Positions 8,912-53,695 are shown, counted from the first letter of the stretch. The stretch: DNA of 64,000 nucleotides from an uncultured Gammaproteobacteria bacterium (GCA_963922315.1 CAWUID010000002.1:9546-73545); one strand, 5' to 3'. The notes: generated from the sequence alone by a model not told the origin. Program-made: numbers and translations.

Positions 8912-10201
8912 ATCGAAATCTGGCATCACATACAGAAAAAGCTGAAGAAAGATCTGACTCAGCAAGAATATAGTACCTGGATACAACCGTTACAGTGTGT
9001 GCAAACTGAGGAAAAGTTGCAGCTTTTTTCTCCGAATTCGTTCGTTATGAAATGGGTGAAAGAACACTATGAAGAAAAAATTAATGGTTATCTTAAACGA
9101 ATTCAGTCCGATACAATTCTAGACATAAGAGTTGGTAACACAGAAAAAAGAGAAGATTTACAAGAAAAAGAAAATTACAAATCAAATGTTAATGAATCAT
9201 TTACTTTCGAAAACTTTGTTGAAGGAAAATCAAATCAATTAGCACGTGCTGCTGGTATACAGGTAGGTGAGAATCCAGGAACAATTTATAATCCAATGTT
9301 CATATATGGTGGCGTCGGGTTAGGAAAAACTCATTTGATGCAGGCAGTAGGCAATATTATCCAGAAAAAGAATCCGAATGCTAAAGTGCTTTACATGCAT
9401 TCAGAACGTTTTGTCGCGAATATGGTCAGGGCGTTGCAACACGGACTCATGGAAGAATTTAAAAAATCTGTACGCGAAGTAAATGCATTACTGATTGATG
9501 ACATACAGTTTTTTGCTGGAAAAGAACGCAGCCAGGAAGAATTTTTTCATACGTTCAATACATTATTTGAGTCCCATCAGCAGATTATATTAACCAGTGA
9601 TTGCTTTCCTAAAGAGGTGAAAGGTTTAGAAGATCGCCTTAAATCGCGATTTGGTTGGGGCCTGACTGTTGCTATAGAGCCACCTGACTTAGAGACCAGA
9701 ATGGCTATTCTGATGAGTAAAGCAACACAGTTATGTAAAACTGAGTTGCCTGATGAAGTTGCTCTTTTCGTCGCAAAAAATGTTCGTTCCAATGTCAGAG
9801 AACTTGAGGGTGCTTTACGTCGAATCAGTGCTAATGCTCAATTCACCGGACAACCAATAACAATTAGTTTTGCTAAAGAAGCACTACGAGATATGTTAGA
9901 TGCTAATGCAAGATTAGTTACGTTAGAGAACATCCAGAAAACTGTTGCAGAGTACTTTAAAACCCGGACATCAGATTTAATATCAAATAAACGTAGCAGA
10001 GCTATTGCACGACCCAGGCAAATTGCCATGTCACTCTCCAAAGAATTAACCAATCATAGTTTGCCTGAGATTGGTGAATCATTTGGTGGAAGAGACCATA
10101 CAACTGTTTTGTATGGAATACGAAAAATAAAAGAACTTCAAGGTATAGATCAAAGGGTCACTGAGGACTATAACAACCTGTTGAGAATTCTGAGTAATTA
10201 A
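8912..10201 (+). CDS. dnaA: Chromosomal replication initiator DnaA (start codon non-canonical or unresolved)
   Basis: [31 protein letters not shown] and [12 protein letters not shown] are present, with near-collinear similarity to E. coli DnaA. The canonical-start ORF begins at GTG 8999. DnaA domain-I homology ([28 protein letters not shown]) continues upstream to the stop codons at 8897/8903. Confidence 0.9.
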
Positions 10202-17758: not shown

Positions 17759-19363
17759 CTAGCGACGCCCAGACCGCTCCAGAATCAACACCGGCAATAA
17801 ACCGGCACCAACCAGAATCAATGCCGGCAACGCAGCCCGCTCCCATTCCCCCTCTGAGGTGAATTCATACAGCCGGACTGCCAGGGTATCCCAGCCGAAC
17901 GGGCGCAACAACAGCGTCGCTGGCATTTCTTTCATCACGTCCACCATCACCAACAACGCCGCAGTCAGCAAGCCGGGACGTAACATCGGCAGATACAGAC
18001 GTTGCATCAGCATACCGGTCTGCACCCCGAGGGTACGTGCTGCTTCCGGCAGACTCGGCTGCAATCGTTGCAGCGCCGCATCCACTGGCCCGTATGCAAC
18101 CGCCAGAAAACGGATGAAATACGCGATACACAATGCCGTCAGAGTACCGGTCAGTAACAGGGTTGGATCGGTGCCGGTAAACCATTGCACCAGATCAGCG
18201 ATGCGCTGATCCAGCCAGGTCAGGCTGAGCATCACGCCGACTGCAAGCACAGAACCGGGTAGTGCATAGCCCAGCGTACTGAGGCGGATGCTGAGACGAG
18301 TGCCAGGCCCGACCCGATAGCTGCGGGCAAAAGCCAGTACCAGGGCACCCCCCACCGTCAGTCCAGCAGCTAGTGCACCCAACATCAGGGTCTGCCCGGT
18401 CAGTACCAGATAATCTGCGGACAGATCAGCCTGTGTCATCCATACCCAGCTGACTAATTGTGCAACCGGCAATACAAACGCTAAGATGAAAATGCCCCAG
18501 GTATAGCATGTAGCAAGCCAACTAACCAGACCATGTAACTGGATTCGTCCCTGTGTTGCCTTAGCTGACTGGGTCACACGAGCGCGGCCCCGACTGTATT
18601 GTTCCAGCCATAACATCAACAGCACCAATAGCAACAACAATGAAGCAAGCTGCGCTGCACTGTACAGATCGAAAAAGCCAAACCAGGTCTTGTAGATTGC
18701 AGTTGTGAAGGTGTCAAAATTGAACACTGAGACAGCACCAAAGTCTGCCAGTGCTTCCATCAATGCCAGACTGAGACCTGCAACCATTGCAGGCCGCGCT
18801 AGCGGCAAAGACACCCGCCAGAAGCTGGCCCAGGTACCCAACCCGAGACTGCGGGCGGCATCAAAAGTACTGCGCCCCTGCGCCATAAACGCCGTCCGTG
18901 CCAGCATGTACACATACGGGTACAGCACCAGACTCATCACCAGCACCACCCCGAACGGATGACGTGCTTCAAACGACCAGTGTCCGGGCAATCCGAACAA
19001 CGTTCGTATGCCGTGCTGCACCGGGCCGGAAAAATCAAACAGTCCCAGAAACACAAACGCCAGCACATAGGCTGGCAGGGCAAACGGCAGCATCAGTCCC
19101 CAGGCAAGCCAGCGCCGCCCGGGAAAATCACACAAACTGGTCAGCCAGGCGAGAGAAATCCCAAGCAGACTGACTCCGATACCGACACCACCGATCAGCA
19201 CAGCTGTGTTGCGCAGCAGGATCGGTAACAGCGTCTGCTGCAGATGTATCCAGATATCCGGATTCAGCTGTGTCCAGCTGAATCCGATCACCCCCAAGGG
19301 CACCAGCACCAGGCTGGTAGTAAACCAACTGGCCCAACGCCAGAACCGATCCACCTGCAACAT
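17759..19363 (-). CDS. fbpB: Fe(3+) ABC transporter permease (fused double permease, FbpB-like)
   Basis: 534 aa. Two tandem MetI-like ABC permease halves (about 12 TM). Immediately downstream of the FbpA-like binding protein gene. Confidence 0.82.
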   Translation of the reverse strand: MLQVDRFWRWASWFTTSLVLVPLGVIGFSWTQLNPDIWIHLQQTLLPILLRNTAVLIGGVGIGVSLLGISLAWLTSLCDFPGRRWLAWGLMLPFALPAYVLAFVFLGLFDFSGPVQHGIRTLFGLPGHWSFEARHPFGVVLVMSLVLYPYVYMLARTAFMAQGRSTFDAARSLGLGTWASFWRVSLPLARPAMVAGLSLALMEALADFGAVSVFNFDTFTTAIYKTWFGFFDLYSAAQLASLLLLLVLLMLWLEQYSRGRARVTQSAKATQGRIQLHGLVSWLATCYTWGIFILAFVLPVAQLVSWVWMTQADLSADYLVLTGQTLMLGALAAGLTVGGALVLAFARSYRVGPGTRLSIRLSTLGYALPGSVLAVGVMLSLTWLDQRIADLVQWFTGTDPTLLLTGTLTALCIAYFIRFLAVAYGPVDAALQRLQPSLPEAARTLGVQTGMLMQRLYLPMLRPGLLTAALLVMVDVMKEMPATLLLRPFGWDTLAVRLYEFTSEGEWERAALPALILVGAGLLPVLILERSGRR

Positions 19364-19492: not shown

Positions 19493-20512
19493 TTAACGGT
19501 ATCCGGTGCGATCCATCAACCGGACTGCCCGCGCCTGAAAGCGACCGGCCTGACGCAGATTGATCGGTTCCTCGCTGAACTCACCCCAGGCCTGTACCTG
19601 GTCAGCAGCCGATACTTGCGGATTTACCGGGTATTCCAGATTCAGTGCCGCAAACTCACCCTGAGCTTCCTCCGAAGCCAACCATTCCAGCAAGCGCAGC
19701 GCAGCTTCAGGGTGTTTCGCATGGAGGGTGACACCACCACCAGAAACATTCACGTGTACCCCACCACTTTCTGCAGTGGGCCAGGCCAGTGCCACCGGTA
19801 AGTCGGATTGTTTACGTTGCAGACGACCAAAGTAATAAGTGTTTACAATCGCGACATCACATTGTCCGGCAGCAACTGCCTGAATCGTTTTGGTATCGTT
19901 GGAAAAGGGTGCAGCCGCCAAATTCGCTACCCAGCCGCGCACAATCTGTTCCGTTTGTATTTCACCGAGACGGGCAATCATCATCGCGACTAATGACTGG
20001 TTATACACTTTTTTCGAAGTACGCAGACAAAGCCGACCACGCCACTTGGGCTGCGCCAGATCAGCATACGTGCTGATCTCCGATGGGTTGACCCGATCTG
20101 TGTTGTAAATGATCGTACGTGCCCGTTTAGACAGGCCGTACCAATGTCCATCCGGGTCGCGTAAAGGCATCGGCACCTGCCGGTTCAGTGGTTCTGAGTC
20201 AACCGCAGCCAGAACACCTTTTTCAGCCGCTTGCCACAGATTACCGGCATCCACCGTCAGTAACAGATCAGCCGGCGTCCGTTTGCCCTCAGCCAGCAAA
20301 CGTTGTACCAAAGGCCCGGCCTTATCAGTCAGCAGACTGATCTTCACACCGGTTTGCTGAGTGTAACGATCAAACAAAGGCTGTATCAGATGCGCTTTGC
20401 GAGCAGAATACACCACCACTTCTTCCGCTGCTGCTACAACAGCAGGTATCGCAATAAAACTACTGAGGGTTAGTGTTATACAGCCCTGCACCAGCTGTTT
20501 GAAATAAAGCAT
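19493..20512 (-). CDS. fbpA: Fe(3+) ABC transporter periplasmic binding protein (FbpA/AfuA-like)
   Basis: Signal peptide and VVVYSARK start of the mature domain. The iron-ligand tyrosine pair is in VNTYYFGR. 339 aa. Confidence 0.86.
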   Translation of the reverse strand: MLYFKQLVQGCITLTLSSFIAIPAVVAAAEEVVVYSARKAHLIQPLFDRYTQQTGVKISLLTDKAGPLVQRLLAEGKRTPADLLLTVDAGNLWQAAEKGVLAAVDSEPLNRQVPMPLRDPDGHWYGLSKRARTIIYNTDRVNPSEISTYADLAQPKWRGRLCLRTSKKVYNQSLVAMMIARLGEIQTEQIVRGWVANLAAAPFSNDTKTIQAVAAGQCDVAIVNTYYFGRLQRKQSDLPVALAWPTAESGGVHVNVSGGGVTLHAKHPEAALRLLEWLASEEAQGEFAALNLEYPVNPQVSAADQVQAWGEFSEEPINLRQAGRFQARAVRLMDRTGYR

Positions 20513-20530: not shown

Positions 20531-20551
20531 GCAAATGAGAATGATTCTTAA
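20531..20551. promoter_or_regulatory. Fur-box-like palindrome in the divergent fbpA / RiPP-operon control region
   Basis: GCAAATGAGAATGATTCTT matches 13 of 19 positions of GATAATGATAATCATTATC by hand alignment. The core AGAATGATTCT is a perfect palindrome. It lies 19 nt upstream of the fbpA start. Confidence 0.45.
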
Positions 20552-20722
20552 TTATATTCTGAAAAACATCCGGAATGAAACAACTAATCTGGCTTATTCT
20601 CTGAATGTCAGCATCTGGTAAAACTTTTAAAGGATTGGTCTGTCCGAAACATACTGGAAAACTGAATGGCGGTTATTATCCGCAAAACATTATCATCCTT
20701 AAACATTGATCAGGAGACTATT

Positions 20723-21076
20723 ATGAACCCATCTGTAAAACCCGTTGCAATCGCTGTCGGCGCCGCTGTTGCAGGCTCTCTGATGTTGACCCAAACCGCA
20801 TCTGCCGGCAGTAATCCGTTCAGCATGACTGAATTACAAAATGGTTACATGGTGTCTGTCTTCTCTTCCATGGGCGAAACTGAAAAGCACGGGGAAGGCA
20901 AATGTGGGGCCGGTAACTGCGGTGGTGATATGAAAGGTAGTGAAGGCAAATGCGGTGCTGGTAAGTGCGGCGGTGACATGAAAGGTAGCGAAGGCAAATA
21001 CGGTGCTGGCAGCTGTGGCGGCAATGCGAAGGGTGGCGAAGGCAAATGTGGCGCTGGTAAGTGCGGCGCTAGCTGA
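20723..21076 (+). CDS. Sec-signal, Cys/Gly-repeat RiPP precursor (HvfA-family-like metallophore precursor)
   Basis: ATG 20723 follows an AGGAG Shine-Dalgarno. Signal peptide MNPSVKPVAIAVGAAVAGSLMLTQTASA|GS. The core is HG-EGKCGAGNCGGDMKGS-EGKCGAGKCGGDMKGS-EGKYGAGSCGGNAKGG-EGKCGAGKCGAS. DUF692 and DUF2063 genes lie immediately downstream. Confidence 0.8.
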   Translation: MNPSVKPVAIAVGAAVAGSLMLTQTASAGSNPFSMTELQNGYMVSVFSSMGETEKHGEGKCGAGNCGGDMKGSEGKCGAGKCGGDMKGSEGKYGAGSCGGNAKGGEGKCGAGKCGAS

Positions 21077-21083
21077 TTCAGAT

Positions 21084-21114
21084 GCCTCGCTCTTGTCACT
21101 GGCAGGGGCGAGGC
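21084..21114 (+). promoter_or_regulatory. Stem-loop between the precursor gene and the MNIO gene (possible attenuator/processing site)
   Basis: GCCTCGC (21084-21090) pairs with GCGAGGC (21108-21114), with a 17-nt loop. There is no clear U-tract. Confidence 0.3.
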
Positions 21115-21145
21115 GATTCATTGCTGATAACTGACAGGAATCCGC

Positions 21146-21988
21146 ATGTCTTACCAGGTACAGGGGGCTGGGCTGGGACTAAAGCAAGAGCTGATTGCAC
21201 CACTGCTGTCACAACAGCCGTCACAGATCAGATTTGTTGAAGTTGCACCAGAAAACTGGATCCACGTAGGGGGTGCCAGAGGTAAATCACTGGATGCAGT
21301 GACTGAACGCTACCCTTTGGTATGTCACGGTCTGTCTCTGAACATTGGTGGTCCGGCACCACTCGATTGGGATTTACTACGCGATATCAAGCGATTCCTG
21401 CAAGAGCGAAAGGTGCTGGTGTACACCGAGCACCTTTCTTATTGTGGTGACAGCGGCCAACTCTACGATCTGATGCCGATTCCGTTTACCGAAGATGCCG
21501 TGCATTACGTGGCTGATCGTATCCGGCAGGTACAAGATTATCTCGGTCGGCAGATTGGCATGGAAAATGTCTCAACTTATGCACAGTTGCCAGGAGAACT
21601 AAGTGAGATCGAGTTCCTGAATGCGGTCTTAACCGAGGCTGACTGCGGCTACCATCTGGATATTAACAACATTTTCGTAAATGCATCTAACCACAGGTTT
21701 GATGCACTGGATTATTTACATCAGATACCTGCCGACCGTCTGTTATATGCCCATATTGCCGGGCATAACCAGCAGACAGACGGGCTGCGAATTGACACAC
21801 ATGGTGAGGATATACTGCCCGATGTCTGGGATTTACTCGAAGATGCTTATACCGAGTACGGCGTCTTTCCGACCTTACTGGAACGAGACTTTAACATCCC
21901 ACCGTTAGAAACTCTGATGGACGAAGTCCGGCAGATTTGTCGGCTGCAACGACACCATGCCACCACAGGCAATGCCCGTGCCGCCTGA
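21146..21988 (+). CDS. DUF692 / MNIO (multinuclear non-heme iron oxidative) RiPP maturase, HvfB/BufB/MbnB-like
   Basis: FVEVAPENW, CHGLSLNIGG, YTEHLSYC, MENVSTY and LLERDFNIPP motifs of the UPF0276/DUF692 TIM-barrel family. 280 aa. Confidence 0.88.
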   Translation: MSYQVQGAGLGLKQELIAPLLSQQPSQIRFVEVAPENWIHVGGARGKSLDAVTERYPLVCHGLSLNIGGPAPLDWDLLRDIKRFLQERKVLVYTEHLSYCGDSGQLYDLMPIPFTEDAVHYVADRIRQVQDYLGRQIGMENVSTYAQLPGELSEIEFLNAVLTEADCGYHLDINNIFVNASNHRFDALDYLHQIPADRLLYAHIAGHNQQTDGLRIDTHGEDILPDVWDLLEDAYTEYGVFPTLLERDFNIPPLETLMDEVRQICRLQRHHATTGNARAA

Positions 21989-22748
21989 TCTGCCTACTTT
22001 TCAGCAACATCAACTGGCATTTACCGCACGGGTGCGTGATCCATCACAGACACCCTGCCCGGCTGATGTGCCAGAACGACGGATGCGGGTCTATGCCGAA
22101 CTGTTATACAACGGCATGGAAAGCCACCTGGCAACCAACTTTCCGGTCTTGCGCCACATTACACCTGACCCGCACTGGCACCAGCTGGTGCGGGATTTTT
22201 TTCAGCAGCACACCTGCCGTACTGGCTTGTTCACGCGCATTGGCCTGGAGTTTCTGGCCTATCTGGAACATGAACGGGACGCACAAGCAGACGACAGACC
22301 TTTTATGCTGGAACTGGCGCATTACGAATATGCAGAACTGGCCGTAGCGATCAGTGACGAACAGGTCACATCACACTACGACCCGAACAGCGACCTGCTC
22401 GCAGGTTGTCCGGTCGTCGCACCAACTGCCTGGAACTTAACCTATTGTTACCCGGTGCATCGCATCAGCCTGGATTATCTGCCAGACGAGCCTCCGGCAC
22501 AGCCGACCCATCTGGTGGTGTATCGGGACCGCCTGGATCAGGTTCATTTCCTGGAGATTAACGCCGTTACCCAACACCTGTTAACCACACTGAAGGCTGA
22601 ACCACAACTCACAGGTCAGGTCTTGCTGGAAAATATGGCTGCGCTGTTACAACCACAGGATCCAGAGCCAATACGACAGGCAGGTGCCGCGTTACTGACT
22701 GACTTACACGAACGTAACATTCTGCTGGGCGCACGATTATCCAACTAA
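21957..22748 (+). CDS. DUF2063 partner protein of the MNIO enzyme (HvfC/BufC-like)
   Basis: 263 aa. N-terminal FQQHQLAFTARVRDP...YAELLYNGMESHLATNFPVL resembles DUF2063. It overlaps the MNIO gene by 32 nt (translational coupling). Confidence 0.78.
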   Translation: MPPQAMPVPPDLPTFQQHQLAFTARVRDPSQTPCPADVPERRMRVYAELLYNGMESHLATNFPVLRHITPDPHWHQLVRDFFQQHTCRTGLFTRIGLEFLAYLEHERDAQADDRPFMLELAHYEYAELAVAISDEQVTSHYDPNSDLLAGCPVVAPTAWNLTYCYPVHRISLDYLPDEPPAQPTHLVVYRDRLDQVHFLEINAVTQHLLTTLKAEPQLTGQVLLENMAALLQPQDPEPIRQAGAALLTDLHERNILLGARLSN

Positions 22749-22770
22749 CACCTATCATTAAGAAGAAAAC

Positions 22771-23340
22771 ATGCTTGAACTACTGAACCGACTCCAGAAC
22801 ATGCTGGATGTAACCCGCAACCTGGACTTTATTGCACCACTAGCCATCCGTTTGTATCTGGTACCGGTATTCTGGATGGCCGGAACAAACAAACTGGCCA
22901 GTATGGACAGCACAATTGCCTGGTTCGGCAACCCGGATTGGGGACTAGGGCTGCCATTTCCGGCACTGATGGCCTGGGCAGCTACATTGGCAGAAGCCGG
23001 TGGTGCCATTCTGCTATTGCTCGGTCTGGCGACCCGCTGGATTTCAATACCACTGTTCATTACCATGGTAGTTGCTGCGGTCACAGTACACTGGCAACAC
23101 GGCTGGGCTGCCATAGCGGAAACATCAGCTTCTGCAGAACGTTTGGAACGTGCGACTGCCATTTTGCAAGAGCATGGCAACTATGCCTGGCTGACCGAAA
23201 CCGGCAACTTCGTGGTATTAAATAACGGCATTGAATTTGCCGTGACCTACGGCATCATGGTGCTCGCATTATTTTTCATCGGCGGCGGACGTTATGTCAG
23301 CGCTGACTACTGGCTGGCCCGCCGCTTCCGCACTGGCTGA
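22771..23340 (+). CDS. DoxX-family membrane protein (fourth gene of the RiPP operon)
   Basis: 189 aa with 4 TM helices. IRLYLVPVFWMAGTNKL and EAGGAILLLLGLATRW are typical of DoxX. It starts 22 nt after the DUF2063 gene. Confidence 0.8.
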   Translation: MLELLNRLQNMLDVTRNLDFIAPLAIRLYLVPVFWMAGTNKLASMDSTIAWFGNPDWGLGLPFPALMAWAATLAEAGGAILLLLGLATRWISIPLFITMVVAAVTVHWQHGWAAIAETSASAERLERATAILQEHGNYAWLTETGNFVVLNNGIEFAVTYGIMVLALFFIGGGRYVSADYWLARRFRTG

Positions 23341-23357
23341 TCACCTGCCGGAACATC

Positions 23358-23678
23358 ATGCTGTCGGTTCAGATCAGCACCCGGGATGCGCTGTATGCCG
23401 CCTATCTGGCCTTTGTGTCGGATGGCGGCATTTTTATTCCCGGCACCGGGGACTACCGGTTAGGTACAATAATTTCATTACAGCTGCGATTGCCGGATAC
23501 AGCCACATGGTTAAGTACATCCGCACAAGTCATCTGGATTACACCACCCACAGCCTCTGATCAGATTGCCGGTATTGGCGTACAATTCACCGGTCAGACT
23601 GCTGCCCGGATCAAACAACAGATTGAGCAGTGCCTGGCAGACCAGCTCCATTCAGATCAGCCCACCCACACCCTGTAA
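23358..23678 (+). CDS. pilZ: PilZ-domain protein (type IV pilus PilZ-like)
   Basis: 106 aa. GGIFIPGTGDYRLGT...IAGIGVQF. It sits directly before the ycfH/tatD-type gene, as in pseudomonads. Confidence 0.75.
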   Translation: MLSVQISTRDALYAAYLAFVSDGGIFIPGTGDYRLGTIISLQLRLPDTATWLSTSAQVIWITPPTASDQIAGIGVQFTGQTAARIKQQIEQCLADQLHSDQPTHTL

Positions 23679-23694
23679 AACACTTCTCGCCAGC

Positions 23695-24477
23695 ATGCTG
23701 ATAGACTCACATTGTCATCTGGATCGTATTGATCTGACCCCGTATGAGGATAACTTCTCTGCCTTTGTCGCACAAACCCTGGCATCCGGTGTTGAGCATA
23801 TGTTATGCGTCTGCATCAACCTGGAAGCTTACCCCGCGATGCGGGAACTGGTCGCTGATTATCCGCAAATTTCACTCTCGGTCGGCGTACACCCCTGCGA
23901 ACAGGATGGGCAGGAGCCAACCGAGACCTTGCTGACAGAACTGGCACAAGATCCGAAAAATGTGGCCATCGGTGAAACCGGGCTGGATTATTTCCATACG
24001 AAAGAGCATAAAGCACAGCAACAGGAACGATTCCGTTGCCACATTCGGGCAGCGCGGGTAGCACGAAAACCGCTGATTGTGCATACCCGCCAGGCACCGG
24101 CCGATACCATCCGATTGTTGCGAGAAGAAAACGCAGCAGAAGTGGGTGGTGTGCTGCACTGTTTCAGTGAAAGCTGGGAAATCGCATGCCAGGCGATAGA
24201 ACTGGGTTTTTATATCTCATTTTCTGGCGTCGTCACCTTCAAAAATGCGCAACGATTGCGTGATGTGGCTGCAAAGGTGCCACTGGACCGATTATTGATC
24301 GAAACCGATTCACCTTATCTGGCACCCGTACCCTGGCGTGGCAAACCCAATGAGCCGCGTTATGTGATCAAAGTCGCCGAAACCCTGGCAGATGTCCGTC
24401 AGATGCCACTGGACGATGTGATACAGATCACTGGCACGAATTACCAAAAATTGTTTGGCCCGATAGCACAACATTGA
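23695..24477 (+). CDS. TatD-family metal-dependent hydrolase (YcfH-like)
   Basis: IDSHCHLD, IGETGLDY, HCFSES and ETDSPYL motifs. ATG 23695 (MLIDSHCHLD) is preferred over the ORF-track start 23566, which overlaps pilZ. Confidence 0.9.
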   Translation: MLIDSHCHLDRIDLTPYEDNFSAFVAQTLASGVEHMLCVCINLEAYPAMRELVADYPQISLSVGVHPCEQDGQEPTETLLTELAQDPKNVAIGETGLDYFHTKEHKAQQQERFRCHIRAARVARKPLIVHTRQAPADTIRLLREENAAEVGGVLHCFSESWEIACQAIELGFYISFSGVVTFKNAQRLRDVAAKVPLDRLLIETDSPYLAPVPWRGKPNEPRYVIKVAETLADVRQMPLDDVIQITGTNYQKLFGPIAQH

Positions 24478-24504: not shown

Positions 24505-24768
24505 ATGACTGTCATGCAAAAAACACTGACTGAACCGTCGCGTGACTGGGTGAAAACACAGATTACTACGCCACCTGGCACCAAACAAAAGATAACAACA
24601 GAAGCTCCTGTGAACAACCATCCAACCCGGTGCTGGGAAGGATCGACTGAAATCCGGACAATTCGTGCAAAACTTATCGAAGGTGAAAACAGTGGCTTCA
24701 TTCGCCAGTCTCCCGAAGAGATACTGGCTGAGTTCAAGGCAGAGCTGAAACAATATGGCCGCTTATGA
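24505..24768 (+). CDS. ParD-like type II antitoxin (atypical central region)
   Basis: The N-terminus TLTEPSRDWVKTQ and C-terminus IRAKLIEGENSGF...ILAEFKAEL resemble ParD/COG3609 antitoxins. The middle 30 aa or so is not recognisable in any frame. It overlaps parE by 14 nt. Confidence 0.55.
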   Translation: MTVMQKTLTEPSRDWVKTQITTPPGTKQKITTEAPVNNHPTRCWEGSTEIRTIRAKLIEGENSGFIRQSPEEILAEFKAELKQYGRL

Positions 24769-25042
24769 ATTAAGCTATCAAGCGAAAATGGATTTGCGCA
24801 ATATCTACCAATATGGTGTATTTCAATACGGAGAAAAACAGGCGGATCAGTATTATATGAGCCTATTCAACTGTTTCGATAAAATTACTGAAAATCCTTA
24901 CTTATATGTTGCTGTTGACCACATCCGCCATGGTTATCGAAGAAGTGTTTTTGGTGTGCATTCAATCTATTACCGCATTGTAAATACTAACGTAGAAATT
25001 ATACGAATTTTAGGCAGACAAGATACAACCCAAGCACTGTAG
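24755..25042 (+). CDS. parE: ParE/RelE-superfamily toxin
   Basis: 95 aa. YELSYQAKMDLRNIYQY...GEKQADQY...ENPYL...IRHGYRR...HSIYYRI...VEIIRILGRQD is a typical plasmid-stabilisation ParE pattern. GC is clearly lower than in the flanking dapD. Confidence 0.85.
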   Translation: MAAYELSYQAKMDLRNIYQYGVFQYGEKQADQYYMSLFNCFDKITENPYLYVAVDHIRHGYRRSVFGVHSIYYRIVNTNVEIIRILGRQDTTQAL

Positions 25043-31085: not shown

Positions 31086-32195
31086 ATGCATATTACTTTA
31101 CCACGCGACACCTTATTACAGCCTTTATTGCGTGCCAGCGCGATAGTCGCGAAACAACAAACCCTGCCGATTCTGAGCAATCTGTTATTCCAGCTCACCC
31201 CAGGTAAACTGACAGTAACAGCAACTGATCTGGAAATTGAACTGGTCACAGAAGTTGCGGCAGAACACGAACAAACGCTGGCGTATGCAATACCTGCCCG
31301 TAAGCTGACAGACATCTGTAAAGCGCTATCATCTGACGCAGAAATCAGCCTGGCTTTCAAGGACAACAAGGTGACGTTACGTGCCGGACATGGGCGTTAT
31401 GTACTGAGTACACTGCCTGCGGGAGATTATCCGACCATCACGACAGACGCAGCGACTGAACAGTTTCACGTGGAACAAGCAAATCTCAGGCACCTGTTAG
31501 ACAAAACCGCTTTTGCGATGGCACAACAGGATGTTCGTTACTATCTGAATGGTTTATTGCTCGCATTCCAACCCGATCAGATTCGGACGGTAGCAACTGA
31601 TGGGCACCGGCTGGCGATGGCGGAAACAGCGTTGGAACATAACATTCAGGATGATACGCAACTGATCATCCCGCGCAAGGCCATTGCTGAGCTCAGCCGG
31701 TTGCTCAGCAGAGATGAAGATGCCTCGGCGCAAATCGCATTCAGTCATCACTATCTGCGGATCGACCTTGGCGGCACCGTGTTTACCACCAAGCTGATAG
31801 AAGGTCAGTTTCCGGACTATGAGTCAATTCTGCCATCTGAACAGGACGCTGATCTGCTCAGAGCAGATCGGGAACAACTCAGACAGGTGCTGGCACGCAC
31901 AGCCGTATTATCAGCAACCGAAAAATTTTGCAGCACACATTTTCACCTGAAAAAAGACCAACTGGGCTTGCAGGTCAACAATACCGAAAATGACGAAGCT
32001 GAAGAACGATTGGACGTAGAATACGACGGCAAATTGCTGGATATGGGATTCAATGCTGCCTACGTGCAGGACGTATTGAATGTCATAGAAACACAATACA
32101 TTGAGATGTTAATTACCGGGCCAGACTCCAGTGTCCTGATTCGTCCGGCAGATACAGAAACTTACCGTTACATCGTGATGCCCATGCGTCTCTGA
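31086..32195 (+). CDS. dnaN: DNA polymerase III beta sliding clamp
   Basis: 369 aa. N-terminus MHITLPRDTLLQPLLRASAIV...LPILSNLLFQ and C-terminus YRYIVMPMRL. Confidence 0.95.
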   Translation: MHITLPRDTLLQPLLRASAIVAKQQTLPILSNLLFQLTPGKLTVTATDLEIELVTEVAAEHEQTLAYAIPARKLTDICKALSSDAEISLAFKDNKVTLRAGHGRYVLSTLPAGDYPTITTDAATEQFHVEQANLRHLLDKTAFAMAQQDVRYYLNGLLLAFQPDQIRTVATDGHRLAMAETALEHNIQDDTQLIIPRKAIAELSRLLSRDEDASAQIAFSHHYLRIDLGGTVFTTKLIEGQFPDYESILPSEQDADLLRADREQLRQVLARTAVLSATEKFCSTHFHLKKDQLGLQVNNTENDEAEERLDVEYDGKLLDMGFNAAYVQDVLNVIETQYIEMLITGPDSSVLIRPADTETYRYIVMPMRL

Positions 32196-32210
32196 TACCA
32201 GCATGAATGG

Positions 32211-32376
32211 CTAGGGGTTGTTCTCAATTAACTGAGTGGAAATGATTTCGAGCCATTTTTTGTGCTGACAAGGCGCAATGAGGAGTAATAGTGGTTCTAT
32301 TGGGACGAGTTGCAACACAGTCAGCGCAGAAAAGGGCCGGAATCAAACCATGAAGCTGATTGAGAATACCTCCTAG
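32211..32376. mobile_element. MITE, family 1, copy 1 (dnaN-recF spacer)
   Basis: 166 nt. TIRs are CTAGGGGTTGTTCTCAATTAAC ... GCTGATTGAGAATACCTCCTAG. The 160-nt core is flanked by TA on both sides. It aligns ungapped (about 85% by hand) with 50591-50756. Confidence 0.8.
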
Positions 32377-32388
32377 TGTCAGGCTGCC

Positions 32389-35863
<3,475 letters not shown>

Positions 35864-45329: not shown

Positions 45330-46556
45330 TCAGGGGTGCAGGGTGTGCCGCCGTGCGATTGTCCGTATCGTGTCTGGTACGATACCCAGTTCAGCAGCGA
45401 TGGCTGGCCATTGGCTCAGCGCCTGGGTAGTTTGTTCGATGATGGTGAGTGCCTGATCAGGCCTGATATCAGTCAGTTTTGCCAGGTCAGTCAGGTCCTT
45501 CCGGGTAAATTGCTGACTTTCTCCCATCAACAGGGTGCTCTGTTCGCCGTTCGGGCCAGATGAGTAGGTGATGTCATATGCGGGTGAAAAGATCCAGTCA
45601 CCCGTCTTATCCAGGATAAATGAAAAGTTTTTTGCATGATCGTCCCGGTTGTGTGACAGCACATTGAAGACGGCCAGCCGGTACAGTTTTTCGACTTGTC
45701 TGACAGATCGGGTCAGAACAGAACAGGCTCTGATCAGATCCTGATAATCCAGGCAAGGCGTTCTGAAGTCTGCGTGCAATAAACCACAGGCACTGACGAC
45801 ATGGCGACGCTGGTTGTGCTGGCGGTCAAACCGCTGTGTTGCAAAATAGCGTTCCTGTAATAACCGGACTGCTGGCATCTCAACCCCGGCCAGTTGTGCC
45901 ATCCGGGCATATGCATATTCAATCAGGCCGGATTGCGGGTCATCATAGGTCTGGTTGAATTTGACGATCCAGTGCTGAAAACCGGCTGGTACATCACCCA
46001 CGCCGGGTATGATTTGAGCGTCTTGCGCATGCAGGCCGATCAGTGCCTTCGGGCGCGCTCCGGCAGATGAACCGTTCAGCCTGAACAGTTGTTCGGAAAA
46101 TTCGGCCTTTTCCTGGATCAGAGCAGCCTGTTCTGCCAGGTTGGCCAGATTCAGCGGCATGTCCTGCTCGCTGATGTCGCTATAATCAGGCAGATAGGTC
46201 AGTGCCCCCATTGCCTGCTGACCGACAGCACACAACCGATCCAGAGGTGAACAGCGGGCTGGTTCAATCTGGTGTGATCTGAGTTTCCGATCCAGCAACA
46301 AACGCCCCCAGCCGTCTGGCAGACTGTCATTAAATACGCCGGGCAATCCCTCAAATAAGTGTGGATCTGAACGTATCAGCCCTGATTTGAGTGGTAGCCT
46401 GAAGGGTGAAATCTGCAGGTCGGTATGGATAAACGTTGCATCATATTCAAAAAAGATGACACGATCTTTGATTGCCAATCGCCCTACCGGCAGGATTGTA
46501 TCCTGATCAAAACGCAGCTCCACAGTCACTTTCGTGGCTGGTATAAATCTGCTCAT
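45330..46556 (-). CDS. hipA: HipA-family serine/threonine kinase toxin
   Basis: 408 aa. N-terminal coupling domain, SSAGARPKAL loop, catalytic DDHAKNFSF, and SPAYDI. 4-nt overlap with the upstream HTH gene. Confidence 0.88.
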   Translation of the reverse strand: MSRFIPATKVTVELRFDQDTILPVGRLAIKDRVIFFEYDATFIHTDLQISPFRLPLKSGLIRSDPHLFEGLPGVFNDSLPDGWGRLLLDRKLRSHQIEPARCSPLDRLCAVGQQAMGALTYLPDYSDISEQDMPLNLANLAEQAALIQEKAEFSEQLFRLNGSSAGARPKALIGLHAQDAQIIPGVGDVPAGFQHWIVKFNQTYDDPQSGLIEYAYARMAQLAGVEMPAVRLLQERYFATQRFDRQHNQRRHVVSACGLLHADFRTPCLDYQDLIRACSVLTRSVRQVEKLYRLAVFNVLSHNRDDHAKNFSFILDKTGDWIFSPAYDITYSSGPNGEQSTLLMGESQQFTRKDLTDLAKLTDIRPDQALTIIEQTTQALSQWPAIAAELGIVPDTIRTIARRHTLHP

Positions 46557-51439: not shown

Positions 51440-53695
51440 TCACTGCGGCCAACTGAGCCACAAGGTATATAGCGGTAGTGCGGACAACACATCGTCCACT
51501 GCCGTTGGGTGTGCATCGTAGCCGACCATAGCCAGACGGCTGGTTCTGCCACGGCGCAGGTGACATGGTACGGGTTGCCATTGCGTTATATTCAGCGGCA
51601 CAATCTGCGTGATGGCTTGCAAACTGCCTGCATCCACATCAACGGCCTGCACTGCAATCTCGCCGGAGGTGGATAACGCCGACGAAGCTTCAATTATTGA
51701 CGGACCGGAACGCAACAGATAATCAGCTACCAGTGTGATATTACCACCCGCACCACCGTGCGCATTCGCTTGAATCTGACTGTTTTCCAGAATGACAAAT
51801 ACCGGATCAATCTGAATATCCCCGCCCTTACCAGCCCCGCCTTTTACACTGGTGATAATCTGGCTGCCTTGCAGATGCAACAGATCGCGCGTTTCAACCC
51901 GGATACTGCCACCTCCGGCATTTTCTGATTCAGTCGTCAGGATACTGCCGCCGTGCATCTGAATCTGTTCGCTGGTCAGAATCGCCAGGTGGCCTGCATT
52001 ACCTGCATCTGTTGCGCCGGACTCACTGCCGGAAGTGATACGTGCACCGTCTGTCATGCTTAACACAGCAGGTCGGTTGACTATGCCAATCAGAATATCA
52101 CCGGCATGGCGACTACCAGTGGCAGATGTGCTGATTTCACTTTTATTGCTCATGGACAATGAGTCACTCAGGTCAATCGCAATCAGACCAGCAGCGTCAG
52201 TCAGTGCTTCACCGAAATCCTGATCTAAGTGTACAAACCCACTGGCAGACCTGATTTTGGCGCCTTCAGTTAAAACCAGATTAGCTGCCTGTATTCGGGT
52301 GGAGCCTGCGACTCCCAGGCTGTATGAAGAACTACTGATCTGCGTATTATGGCCGCTGAGTTGAATCTGACCGGAGGCAGCCAGTTGTATGGTACCACCC
52401 CGGCCAGTGCTCAAGGTCCCGGCACTGATCGCGGCTTCATTCTCCAGCGTGATGTCGGTTGCCCGGATTGTCAGGTTGCCACTGTTGCCTGCATTGGCAA
52501 TAATGCTGAAGGTGCTGATATCAATAAAGCTATTATTCATTAGCACCTGATTGGCAGCTTCGAGCTGAACTGCCCCACCCTGACCATTGTTATAAGTCAT
52601 TGTGGTGATCAAGGTATCGTTCTCCAGTGTGATGTCGGCTGCCTGGATTACCAGATTGCCACCGGCACCTGCATCATCGGCTTCGCTGGTTGTTTCCGTA
52701 GTGATAAAACCGTCGTCGATTCTGACCTGATCATTAGCTGTCAACCGGACTGATCCACCCTGTCCACGACTATTCGCCATAGCAGTGATTTCTGAATCTG
52801 TGATCTGTATCGTATTCGCCTGCAAGTCTACGCTGTAACCTGTTGCATCAAAAACACTATTGTTATCAGCCCAGAATGCACTATCACTGATGGTGATATG
52901 CTGACCCAGTATCTGGATTTTGCCGATCATGTGGCTATCAGACTGATTGTCAACGATGATGTCGCTTTCGGTAAAAGTGATATTTGCCTGAGTAGCAGAA
53001 GTTGTGTCGATGCGGTCTGATGAGAGTCGTGCTTCGCCGACTGAGCCCAGTCCGACCAGGTTGATATATCCACCAGAGGTCTCGAAAGTTGCCCCGGAAG
53101 TGGTGCTGATTTCGCCGCCGACCAGGCTGATTGTCTGGCCTTCTGCGACGCTTTGCTGACTGCCATCTATCCGGATTGTGCCGATGTCTGCGTCCAGAAA
53201 GCCGAATGCTTCAGGTGCAGCAACGGTGAGTGTGACGCCCTGATCCGGGTCGATATATACGTGTTGTCCATCTGCCAGGGTGATGTAATTGGCGGTGGTT
53301 GCATGAAATGCACCCTGTACATCCAGGTTGGCGTTCTCGCCCATCACAATACCATTCGGATTCACCAGATACATATCGGCATGACTGGTGGTGCTTTTGA
53401 TCTGGCCATCAATCCAACTATCGTTCGAGCCAGTCACCCGGCTGATGATGTGTTGCGTATCGGGTGCTGCCTGGAAATCAGCCGTCTGATCAGTCTCGAC
53501 GTTAAATTCCTGAAAGCTGTGTAGCAGATTGGTGCCTCGGGCAGTGCCGTTAGTGATTGCTAATATCTGGTCTTGTGTTTTTACAGTTGTGCCGGCAGTG
53601 CTGTCAGCGATCAGCCCGCCACCAGGTGCGGCAAACAGCGTGTTGCCTAACAGCAGGCTACTGAGCAGAGCCGGTAGGATAATTGTTGTTATCAT
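51440..53695 (-). CDS. Filamentous-haemagglutinin N-terminal (TPS) domain exoprotein, TpsA-like, no TpsB nearby
   Basis: Signal peptide, TPS-domain motifs NLLHSFQEFNV and YLVNPNGIVMG, then about 600 aa of degenerate beta-helix repeats (ITLEN..., GQGG..V.L.A). 751 aa. Confidence 0.85.
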   Translation of the reverse strand: MITTIILPALLSSLLLGNTLFAAPGGGLIADSTAGTTVKTQDQILAITNGTARGTNLLHSFQEFNVETDQTADFQAAPDTQHIISRVTGSNDSWIDGQIKSTTSHADMYLVNPNGIVMGENANLDVQGAFHATTANYITLADGQHVYIDPDQGVTLTVAAPEAFGFLDADIGTIRIDGSQQSVAEGQTISLVGGEISTTSGATFETSGGYINLVGLGSVGEARLSSDRIDTTSATQANITFTESDIIVDNQSDSHMIGKIQILGQHITISDSAFWADNNSVFDATGYSVDLQANTIQITDSEITAMANSRGQGGSVRLTANDQVRIDDGFITTETTSEADDAGAGGNLVIQAADITLENDTLITTMTYNNGQGGAVQLEAANQVLMNNSFIDISTFSIIANAGNSGNLTIRATDITLENEAAISAGTLSTGRGGTIQLAASGQIQLSGHNTQISSSSYSLGVAGSTRIQAANLVLTEGAKIRSASGFVHLDQDFGEALTDAAGLIAIDLSDSLSMSNKSEISTSATGSRHAGDILIGIVNRPAVLSMTDGARITSGSESGATDAGNAGHLAILTSEQIQMHGGSILTTESENAGGGSIRVETRDLLHLQGSQIITSVKGGAGKGGDIQIDPVFVILENSQIQANAHGGAGGNITLVADYLLRSGPSIIEASSALSTSGEIAVQAVDVDAGSLQAITQIVPLNITQWQPVPCHLRRGRTSRLAMVGYDAHPTAVDDVLSALPLYTLWLSWPQ

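Follow-up and report, generated by a model that had tools for sequence, protein, structure and literature searches.

The question raised by the operon at positions 20723-23340 of a 64,000-nucleotide stretch of DNA from an uncultured Gammaproteobacteria bacterium (GCA_963922315.1 CAWUID010000002.1:9546-73545; the whole stretch is referred to as the window, and positions are counted from its first letter) is whether its four genes represent something new or belong to a system that has already been described. The original prediction read it as a locus for a Sec-exported, Cys-repeat ribosomally synthesized and post-translationally modified peptide (RiPP) with a multinuclear non-heme iron oxidase (MNIO), a DUF2063 partner and a DoxX protein, and this is borne out by Pfam and NCBIfam matches. 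It further proposed that the locus is a hybrid of Hvf-type and bufferin-type operons, and this does not hold. The locus is very probably an hvfABCX operon of the EGKCG/oxazolin branch of the captophorins, the Cu-associated peptidic thiooxazole metallophores, and the operon is an ordinary representative of a previously described and very large family that makes secreted Cu-binding peptides carrying Cys-derived thiooxazoles; it is neither a hybrid nor a source of new chemistry. The system type, the gene set, the chemistry and the likely metal had all been published beforehand, and NCBIfam models exist for all four of the genes, which are as follows.

20723-21076, plus strand: hvfA-family precursor, 117 aa; NF050137 match, tandem repeat, 1607 homologues (E ≤ 1e-3)
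21146-21988, plus strand: hvfB, MNIO (formerly DUF692), 280 aa; PF05114, NF003818
21957-22748, plus strand: hvfC, MNIO partner with an N-terminal DUF2063 domain and a C-terminal domain like a RiPP recognition element (RRE), 263 aa; PF09836, PF22106, NF050145
22771-23340, plus strand: hvfX, DoxX-family inner-membrane protein, accessory, 189 aa; PF07681, NF050144

The four open reading frames are closely spaced, with a gap of 69 nt from the precursor stop codon to the hvfB ATG, an overlap of 32 nt between hvfB and hvfC if the ATG at 21957 is used, and a gap of 22 nt between hvfC and hvfX. The hvfC start also appears in public gene calls at 21972 (258 aa) and 21978 (256 aa). An AGGAG sequence (20712-20716) lies 6 nt 5' of the hvfA ATG.

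Family placement was by Pfam profile search and then by NCBIfam models judged by their curated cut-offs; the original prediction had named profile hidden Markov model searches as its check, and these assign 21146-21988 to DUF692/MNIO (PF05114) and 21957-22748 to DUF2063 (PF09836). All four proteins exceed the NCBIfam cut-offs for Hvf families, the precursor doing so through the HvfA-family repeat domain, and none of the window proteins reaches the cut-offs of the BufB, MbnB and strict HvfA-equivalog models. The HvfB product matches PF05114 (MbnB_TglH_ChrH) at 1.2e-97 and passes the HvfB family model NF003818 (399 bits, cut-off 360), but not NF050167 (BufB; 261 bits, cut-off 310) or TIGR04159 (MbnB; 41.6 bits, cut-off 325). 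HvfC matches PF09836 at 1.7e-22 and PF22106 at 1.3e-28, passes NF050145 (HvfC; 284 bits, cut-off 142) and has a weak match to 3DEE/NGO1945, and HvfX matches PF07681 (DoxX) at 1.4e-21 and passes NF050144 (HvfX family) with 238.5 bits against a cut-off of 80. The nearest solved structure to the window HvfB is 3BWW, an MNIO of Histophilus somni (5.5e-73), with which it shares identical conserved motifs HGLSL (61), EHLS (95), MEN (139), HLDINN (170), HIAGH (203), DTHGE (217) and LLERD (244), including the counterparts of the site-3 ligands N175, D242 and H244 of HvfB in nontypeable Haemophilus influenzae (NTHi). The window proteins are already present in public metagenome-assembled genomes (MAGs; Pseudomonadota bacterium), labelled only as 'hypothetical', 'DUF692', 'putative DNA-binding' and 'DoxX'; an exact-sequence look-up with HvfB matched records and the same look-up with the precursor returned none.

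We note one further element inside hvfC. At 22169-22204, in the sense orientation, there is an intrinsic-terminator-like site with an 11-bp stem containing 8 G-C pairs (CCCGCACTGGC ACCA GCTGGTGCGGG), followed by an A and seven T residues. It is one of six terminator-like sites in the scanned region, compared with 3.0 ± 1.8 in shuffled sequences, and it could either contribute to attenuation of hvfC and hvfX expression or be a chance occurrence.

The precursor is organized into three parts, with the following features.

20723-20806, plus strand: signal peptide, aa 1-28, with its n-, h- and c-regions assigned by hand-read heuristics
20807-20893, plus strand: aa 29-57, within which lies the conserved NPF..EL..GY segment, identified from the alignment of relatives
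20894-21073, plus strand: four 16-aa Cys repeats, aa 58-117, identified by tandem-repeat detection
20999-21001, plus strand: Tyr93 codon (TAC), in the third repeat unit

The N-terminus fits a Sec signal peptide, with an n-region MNPSVK, an h-region PVAIAVGAAVAGSLML (mean Kyte-Doolittle value 2.0) and a c-region TQTASA|GS, and this layout is kept across an alignment of 60 relatives (A1). The core is a real tandem repeat at 20894-21068 with a period of 48 nt (16 aa), 3.6 copies and 79% matches, and its units are, in order, EGKCGAGNCGG, EGKCGAGKCGG, EGKYGAGSCGG and EGKCGAGKCGA. The 117-aa length, the signal peptide and the EGKCGAG[N/K/S]CGG units all stand as originally described, but the replacement of the first Cys by Tyr in the third unit had been overlooked, and the precursor thus has seven Cys residues rather than eight. 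The TAC codon recurs in four assemblies besides the window, five in all, and is therefore not a read error. The precursor matches the HvfA-family model NF050137 (KCGExKCG_twice) in two stretches with 38.5 bits (cut-off 19.5), and has no Pfam match, including to DUF2282. Between the signal peptide and the core, the NPF..EL..GY segment is present in 82 of 124 precursor relatives; in alignment A1, G41 and Y42 are invariant, and P32, F33 and L38 are conserved in at least 90% of sequences. The segment is a candidate site for recognition by the RRE of HvfC.

Among close strain variants, nearly all of the amino acid differences are within the precursor core, including the residue preceding the second Cys, and a Y93C change. 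A further departure is seen in one locus of the same strain group, from a low-coverage metagenome assembly (L082:2784-2871, aligned to window 20929-21016), in which there are approximately 24 substitutions within 88 nt of the precursor repeats, and a single difference from the window in the remaining 550 aligned bases. The substitutions erase three Cys codons, so that the encoded protein (P0023) has four Cys residues compared with seven in the window. The tract is either an assembly artefact in the repeat or a localized tract of recombination or mutation.

The locus was compared with 124 precursor relatives and with 80 genome loci retrieved using HvfB as the query, where the top matches are Chromatiales MAGs (70% identity). 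Writing the precursor, hvfB, hvfC and hvfX as A, B, C and X, the order A-B-C-X of the window is the commonest (34 of the 80 loci), followed by ABC (29), BC (6), BCX (5), AXBC (3) and XBC (3). An HvfX homologue is thus downstream of hvfC in 39 loci (34 with ABCX, 5 with BCX), and in another six it precedes hvfB; such a gene is common in these clusters without being obligatory. These arrangements agree with a survey of MNIO clusters, in which a 'Buf_EGKCG/oxazolin' precursor group of approximately 2,000 proteins has a precursor-MNIO-DUF2063-DoxX core (PMC12452194). The name captophorins covers the whole set, with more than 20,000 clusters in RefSeq (PMC13097082).

Among the closest known systems is the hvf operon of NTHi, which encodes the DoxX protein HvfX (NTHI1440), HvfA, the MNIO HvfB and the DUF2063-like HvfC (PMC11252979). 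The two systems (NTHI1440-1444 in NTHi) share the four protein families, the Sec signal, repeated double x-G-K-C-G motifs, an MNIO with a DUF2063/RRE partner and a DoxX accessory protein; control by an extracytoplasmic function (ECF) sigma factor is experimental in NTHi and predicted in the window. There are also several departures. The NTHi order is X-A-B-C by gene numbering and not A-B-C-X; NTHi HvfA has three copies of the unit AEGKCGEGKCG and six Cys residues, compared with four copies of EGKCGAG[N/K/S]CG[G/A], one Cys changed to Tyr and seven Cys residues in the window; NTHi HvfA has an N-terminal Cys38/Cys43 pair in place of which the window precursor has the NPF..EL..GY segment; the window precursor does not pass the HvfA equivalog model (34.9 bits, cut-off 95); and the window HvfB lacks an insertion of about 25 aa that is present in both 3BWW and NTHi HvfB.

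Fontiphorin (FonABC of Fontimonas thermophila), gonophorin (Neisseria gonorrhoeae ngo) and bulbicupramide (MmrABC of Microbulbifer) have the same EGKCG-repeat precursor type, and in these an MNIO with a PME1/DUF2063 partner generates 5-thiooxazoles that bind Cu(I). Microbulbifer MmrA further resembles the window precursor in having a conserved N-terminal part, with a core and Cys count that differ between strains (PMC12538549), although the mmr cluster as described contains mmrA-C only. The fontiphorin system differs in that the FonBC substrate has Glu at the position of the window's Ala, and an E6A change is handled less well. The bufferins (BufABCD of Caulobacter vibrioides; gig operons) share the order precursor-MNIO-DUF2063-DoxX and a Sec-exported precursor, as well as thiooxazole modification, copper binding and a dispensable DoxX protein, features that are known for bufferins and expected by homology for the window; in Caulobacter, DoxX is dispensable for modification of Buf1, and Buf1 protects against copper. 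They differ, however, in that Buf precursors are folded DUF2282 or 6-/12-Cys domains rather than EGKCG repeats lacking a Pfam match, in that the window MNIO is under the BufB cut-off, and in that sigma/NrsF genes are not adjacent in the window. Methanobactin (MbnABC) is alike in its MNIO-dependent Cys oxidation to a copper-binding heterocycle, but has a short precursor of leader-core type (MbnA), an MbnC partner, an oxazolone/thioamide and induction by copper starvation, as opposed to a Sec signal and DUF2063.

The second Cys of each repeat, which had been taken to lie in a different and unpredictable context, is in the identical register (KCG-A-G-x-CG) to that of the HvfA unit AEGKCGEGKCG, with Glu changed to Ala before the second G-x-C-G. 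All six Cys residues of the three NTHi HvfA units are modified, and HvfABC alone are sufficient for modification in Escherichia coli (PMC11252979). The sequence EGKCGAGKCGG is moreover the commonest double motif in the 124 precursor relatives (146 instances, compared with 99 for EGKCGEGKCGG), and AGNCG and AGSCG recur among them; EGSCG and EGNCG are also natural. In variant scans of FonBC substrates, all residues tested at position 1 were tolerated except Pro and Arg, with normal modification after the single changes E1A and E11A; at position 3, Ala, Arg and Thr were accepted whereas Phe and Glu were not, and position 5 allowed only Gly or Ala. All of the Cys residues of the window precursor satisfy these rules. 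The nature of the modification has also been revised. The original prediction placed oxazolone/thioamide pairs at EGKCG motifs, and in 2025-26 this assignment was changed to 5-thiooxazole by two groups (PMC13097082; bioRxiv 10.64898/2026.06.05.730506) from alkylation-assisted HMBC (heteronuclear multiple bond correlation), acid stability and ultraviolet (UV) spectra (see also bioRxiv 10.64898/2026.07.17.739211); HvfBC, FonBC and NgoBC all install 5-thiooxazoles (PMC13097082; bioRxiv 10.64898/2026.06.05.730506). Seven thiooxazoles are thus predicted on the 89-aa mature window peptide (average mass 8515 Da), with a total change of -28 Da and the thiooxazole absorbance near 302-305 nm, and both the conversion of Cys to 5-thiooxazole and Cu(I) binding would be expected by analogy with these homologues.

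Against this background a hybrid of Hvf-type and bufferin-type systems, with a new product and an unpredictable chemistry at the second Cys, seems extremely unlikely. The gene order does equal that of Buf1 operons, the second Cys is preceded by A-G-x and not E-G-K, and the E6A variant is processed less well by FonBC. But DoxX is native to the hvf operon (PMC11252979), and the supposed bufferin-type fourth gene belongs to the published RiPP-MNIO-DUF2063-DoxX core of EGKCG/oxazolin clusters (PMC12452194); the idea takes the hvf operon without the DoxX gene that it carries in NTHi itself. The window DoxX exceeds the HvfX cut-off, the MNIO is above the HvfB cut-off and below that of BufB, the precursor matches neither DUF2282 nor any other Pfam family, relatives of the HvfB type most often have the order A-B-C-X, and KCGAGKCGG is the majority motif. 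It is also very unlikely that the modification is a methanobactin-like oxazolone/thioamide pair. This was the original assignment for HvfA (PMC11252979), and NCBIfam family names still include 'oxazolone/thioamide-modified', but the oxazolin has since been reassigned as described above, and MbnB-type enzymes are distant from the window MNIO (42 bits, cut-off 325) and have MbnC and not DUF2063 as a partner.

Several observations nonetheless weigh against assignment of the locus to the EGKCG/oxazolin captophorins. The precursor scores only 34.9 bits against a cut-off of 95 with the strict HvfA equivalog NF050188, and aa 29-57 contain no Cys residues, such that the N-terminal pair (C38/C43) that aids recognition in NTHi is absent. 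In the FonBC scans, the single E6A change, which corresponds to the natural Ala in the window precursor, lowered turnover, and the Asn and Ser residues that are natural at position 3 in the window precursor were outside of the tested variants. An AlphaFold2 model of the precursor (from the 60-sequence alignment) is uninformative, with a mean predicted local distance difference test (pLDDT) score of 44, a predicted template modelling (pTM) score of 0.16 and zero secondary structure, and at most suggests disorder. Microbulbifer mmr is not induced by copper and gives only marginal copper protection (PMC12538549), and neither a sigma-factor gene nor an anti-sigma gene was found in the window with an approximate E. 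coli RpoE sequence as probe.

Regulation of the operon may involve two elements in the intergenic regions on either side of hvfA.

20620-20647, plus strand: predicted ECF sigma-E-type promoter, with a -35 element AAAACTT (20620-20626), a 15-nt spacer and GTCCGA (20642-20647)
21084-21114, plus strand: G+C-rich stem-loop with a 14-bp stem, shortly downstream of the precursor stop codon, without a T-run

A sigma-70 promoter scan upstream of hvfA gave no plus-strand candidate, and we therefore performed a comparative k-mer search, which revealed the ECF-type motif. The 7-mer AAGTTTC is present in 22 of 62 upstream regions and in none of 42 controls, and when oriented and extended it becomes [GA][GA]AACTT-N15-GTC. 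Across the 80 related loci (1.03 Mb), this motif (RRAACTT-N15-GTC) is found 30 times, in 29 cases on the sense strand within 300 nt upstream of a precursor gene (0.009 expected); among 61 related precursor genes, 29 are preceded by it. There is a single match in the 64-kb window (20620-20644), approximately 75 nt upstream of the hvfA ATG. A GGAACTT-N16-TCnnA promoter would mark a member of a sigma-E-type regulon. The hvfA motif agrees with the sigma-E consensus of E. coli (GGAACTT/TCAAA) and is similar to the sigma-E motif of Neisseria, as both are given in PMC2893595, and a function as an ECF sigma-E-type promoter for hvfA seems a reasonable reading of this conservation. ECF control has been shown experimentally in two relatives: doxX-hvfABC in NTHi is RpoE2-dependent and HOCl-induced (PMC7907618), and the Neisseria homologues are within a sigma-E operon (PMC2893595). 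With such a promoter the operon would probably be stress-induced rather than copper-sensed, and the same type of promoter may explain the lack of copper induction of Microbulbifer mmr. An ECF sigma gene was found near the operon in only one of the 80 related loci, with the same approximate probe.

The stem-loop region (81 nt) folds with -32.7 kcal/mol (z = -3.2), and none of 200 shuffled sequences folds as well. The five strain-variant loci L081-L085 carry it unchanged, and strong hairpins are at the equivalent place in L001, L003, L004, L006, L014, L042, L050 and L075, two of which are followed by T-runs; comparable hairpins are thus present in the closest relatives and in some others. The recurrence of a hairpin after the precursor gene suggests differential expression of precursor and enzymes, and it probably acts as an mRNA 3'-end stabilizer or a partial terminator that raises the precursor-to-enzyme ratio.

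For the hvfABCX operon as assigned here, a simple sequence of events can be proposed. Transcription would start at the ECF sigma-E-type promoter, probably in response to stress and not to copper, and the stem-loop after hvfA would probably yield more precursor than enzyme message. In the cytoplasm, HvfC would bind the precursor, with the NPF..EL..GY segment after the signal peptide as the probable contact site, and present the precursor to HvfB, whose mixed-valent diiron centre would use O2 in a four-electron oxidation of each Cys in x-G-x-C-G, converting it to a 5-thiooxazole with a loss of 4 Da, as expected by homology to HvfBC, FonBC and NgoBC. All seven Cys residues are predicted substrates, including the four in A-G-[N/K/S]-C-G contexts, and the -28 Da total follows from this presumed count. 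The modified 117-aa peptide would then be exported by Sec and, as in homologues, cleaved after ASA28 to give an 89-aa Gly/Lys-rich and probably disordered periplasmic peptide. Again by comparison with homologues, the mature peptide would bind Cu(I) through the N and S atoms of its thiooxazoles, buffering copper or oxidative stress, and HvfX would be an inner-membrane accessory that is not needed for modification.

It is possible, if rather unlikely, that the chemistry is as proposed and that the role is not copper buffering but part of a response, under ECF control, to envelope or oxidative (HOCl-type) stress, with the peptide serving for instance as a periplasmic redox/electrophile sink or a binder of another soft metal. 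The conserved sigma-E-type promoter and the lack of a nearby metal regulator are consistent with such a role, as are the RpoE2 dependence and HOCl induction of the Haemophilus operon (PMC7907618), the location of the Neisseria homologues in a sigma-E operon together with the msrAB regulon (PMC2893595), the absence of copper induction and the weak protection of Microbulbifer mmr (PMC12538549), and the binding of Cu(I) by unmodified HvfA (PMC11252979). However, Cu(I) binding is common to all characterized products of the class, and in Caulobacter Buf1 confers protection from copper; a stress role is in any case compatible with the hvfABCX reading and does not exclude it. More doubtful is a broader proposal, in which the Ala-type motif (EGKCG-A-G-x-CGG) marks a co-adapted HvfB/HvfA sub-branch with uneven numbers of thiooxazoles (7 in the window, 4-8 among strains), and the whole gammaproteobacterial branch is switched on by an RpoE/AlgU-type envelope-stress sigma factor and not by copper. 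Reduced turnover of E6A by FonBC suggests that the Ala-type branch may have a co-adapted enzyme, but the Ala-type loci cluster in one clade, and ancestry and co-adaptation are inseparable here. A part in iron acquisition is almost certainly not the explanation. It would draw on the Fe(III)-type ABC transporter genes divergent from hvfA (solute-binding protein, 19493-20512; permease, 17759-19363) and a 13/19 Fur-box match at 20531-20549 in the shared intergenic region, but none of the 80 loci has these transporter genes within 8 kb, the Fur-like match scores poorly (the window has 18 sites of this kind, compared with approximately 8 in shuffled sequences), and the site is next to the transporter gene and approximately 170 nt from hvfA.

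With the operon placed among the EGKCG/oxazolin captophorins, the surrounding genes can be described briefly. The Fur-box-like sequence GCAAATGAGAATGATTCTT (20531-20549; 13/19 to the consensus) is 20-40 nt upstream of the divergent substrate-binding gene, and is plausible but statistically weak as a regulatory site for this transporter. On the other side, a PilZ-domain gene begins 17 nt past the hvfX stop codon and is followed by tatD on the same strand (23358-24477); the scan gave no convincing terminator after hvfX, and read-through from the hvf promoter into PilZ/tatD is therefore possible. The Fe(III)-type transporter, PilZ and TatD genes are absent from all 80 related loci, and we consider the neighbourhood incidental for this reason and reject a link to iron on the basis of this adjacency and the weak Fur-like box. 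A ParD-like/ParE toxin-antitoxin pair (24505-25042) is between tatD and dapD in the window and in L082, and is missing from the otherwise near-identical L081 and L083, where dapD directly follows tatD; it thus represents a strain-variable insertion. The hvf locus is within an interval of approximately 21 kb that separates dnaA (8999-10201) from dnaN-recF-gyrB (31086-35863), rather than these being adjacent, and the match of the DnaA open reading frame (400 aa, GTG start) to the DnaA_N domain is confined to the final part of that domain. Farther away, and unrelated to the hvf operon, are a HipA-family toxin kinase gene (45330-46556, minus strand) and a gene for a 751-aa protein with a two-partner-secretion (TPS) domain (51440-53695, minus strand).

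Three points are of modest value. In uncultured Chromatiales-like Gammaproteobacteria, the double motif is mostly of the E-to-A type, and the Ala-type motif provides a natural test case for co-adaptation of enzyme and substrate because FonBC, the sole enzyme tested, handled the E-to-A change less well. The NPF..EL..GY segment is a candidate for the site that the HvfC RRE recognizes, and the conserved sigma-E-type promoter offers a concrete and testable idea about the inducer of EGKCG-type captophorin operons. If control by an envelope-stress sigma factor is correct, it would account for Microbulbifer mmr not responding to copper, and if there is indeed an Ala-type, co-adapted and envelope-stress-controlled branch, then these abundant peptides would act as a general periplasmic stress buffer.

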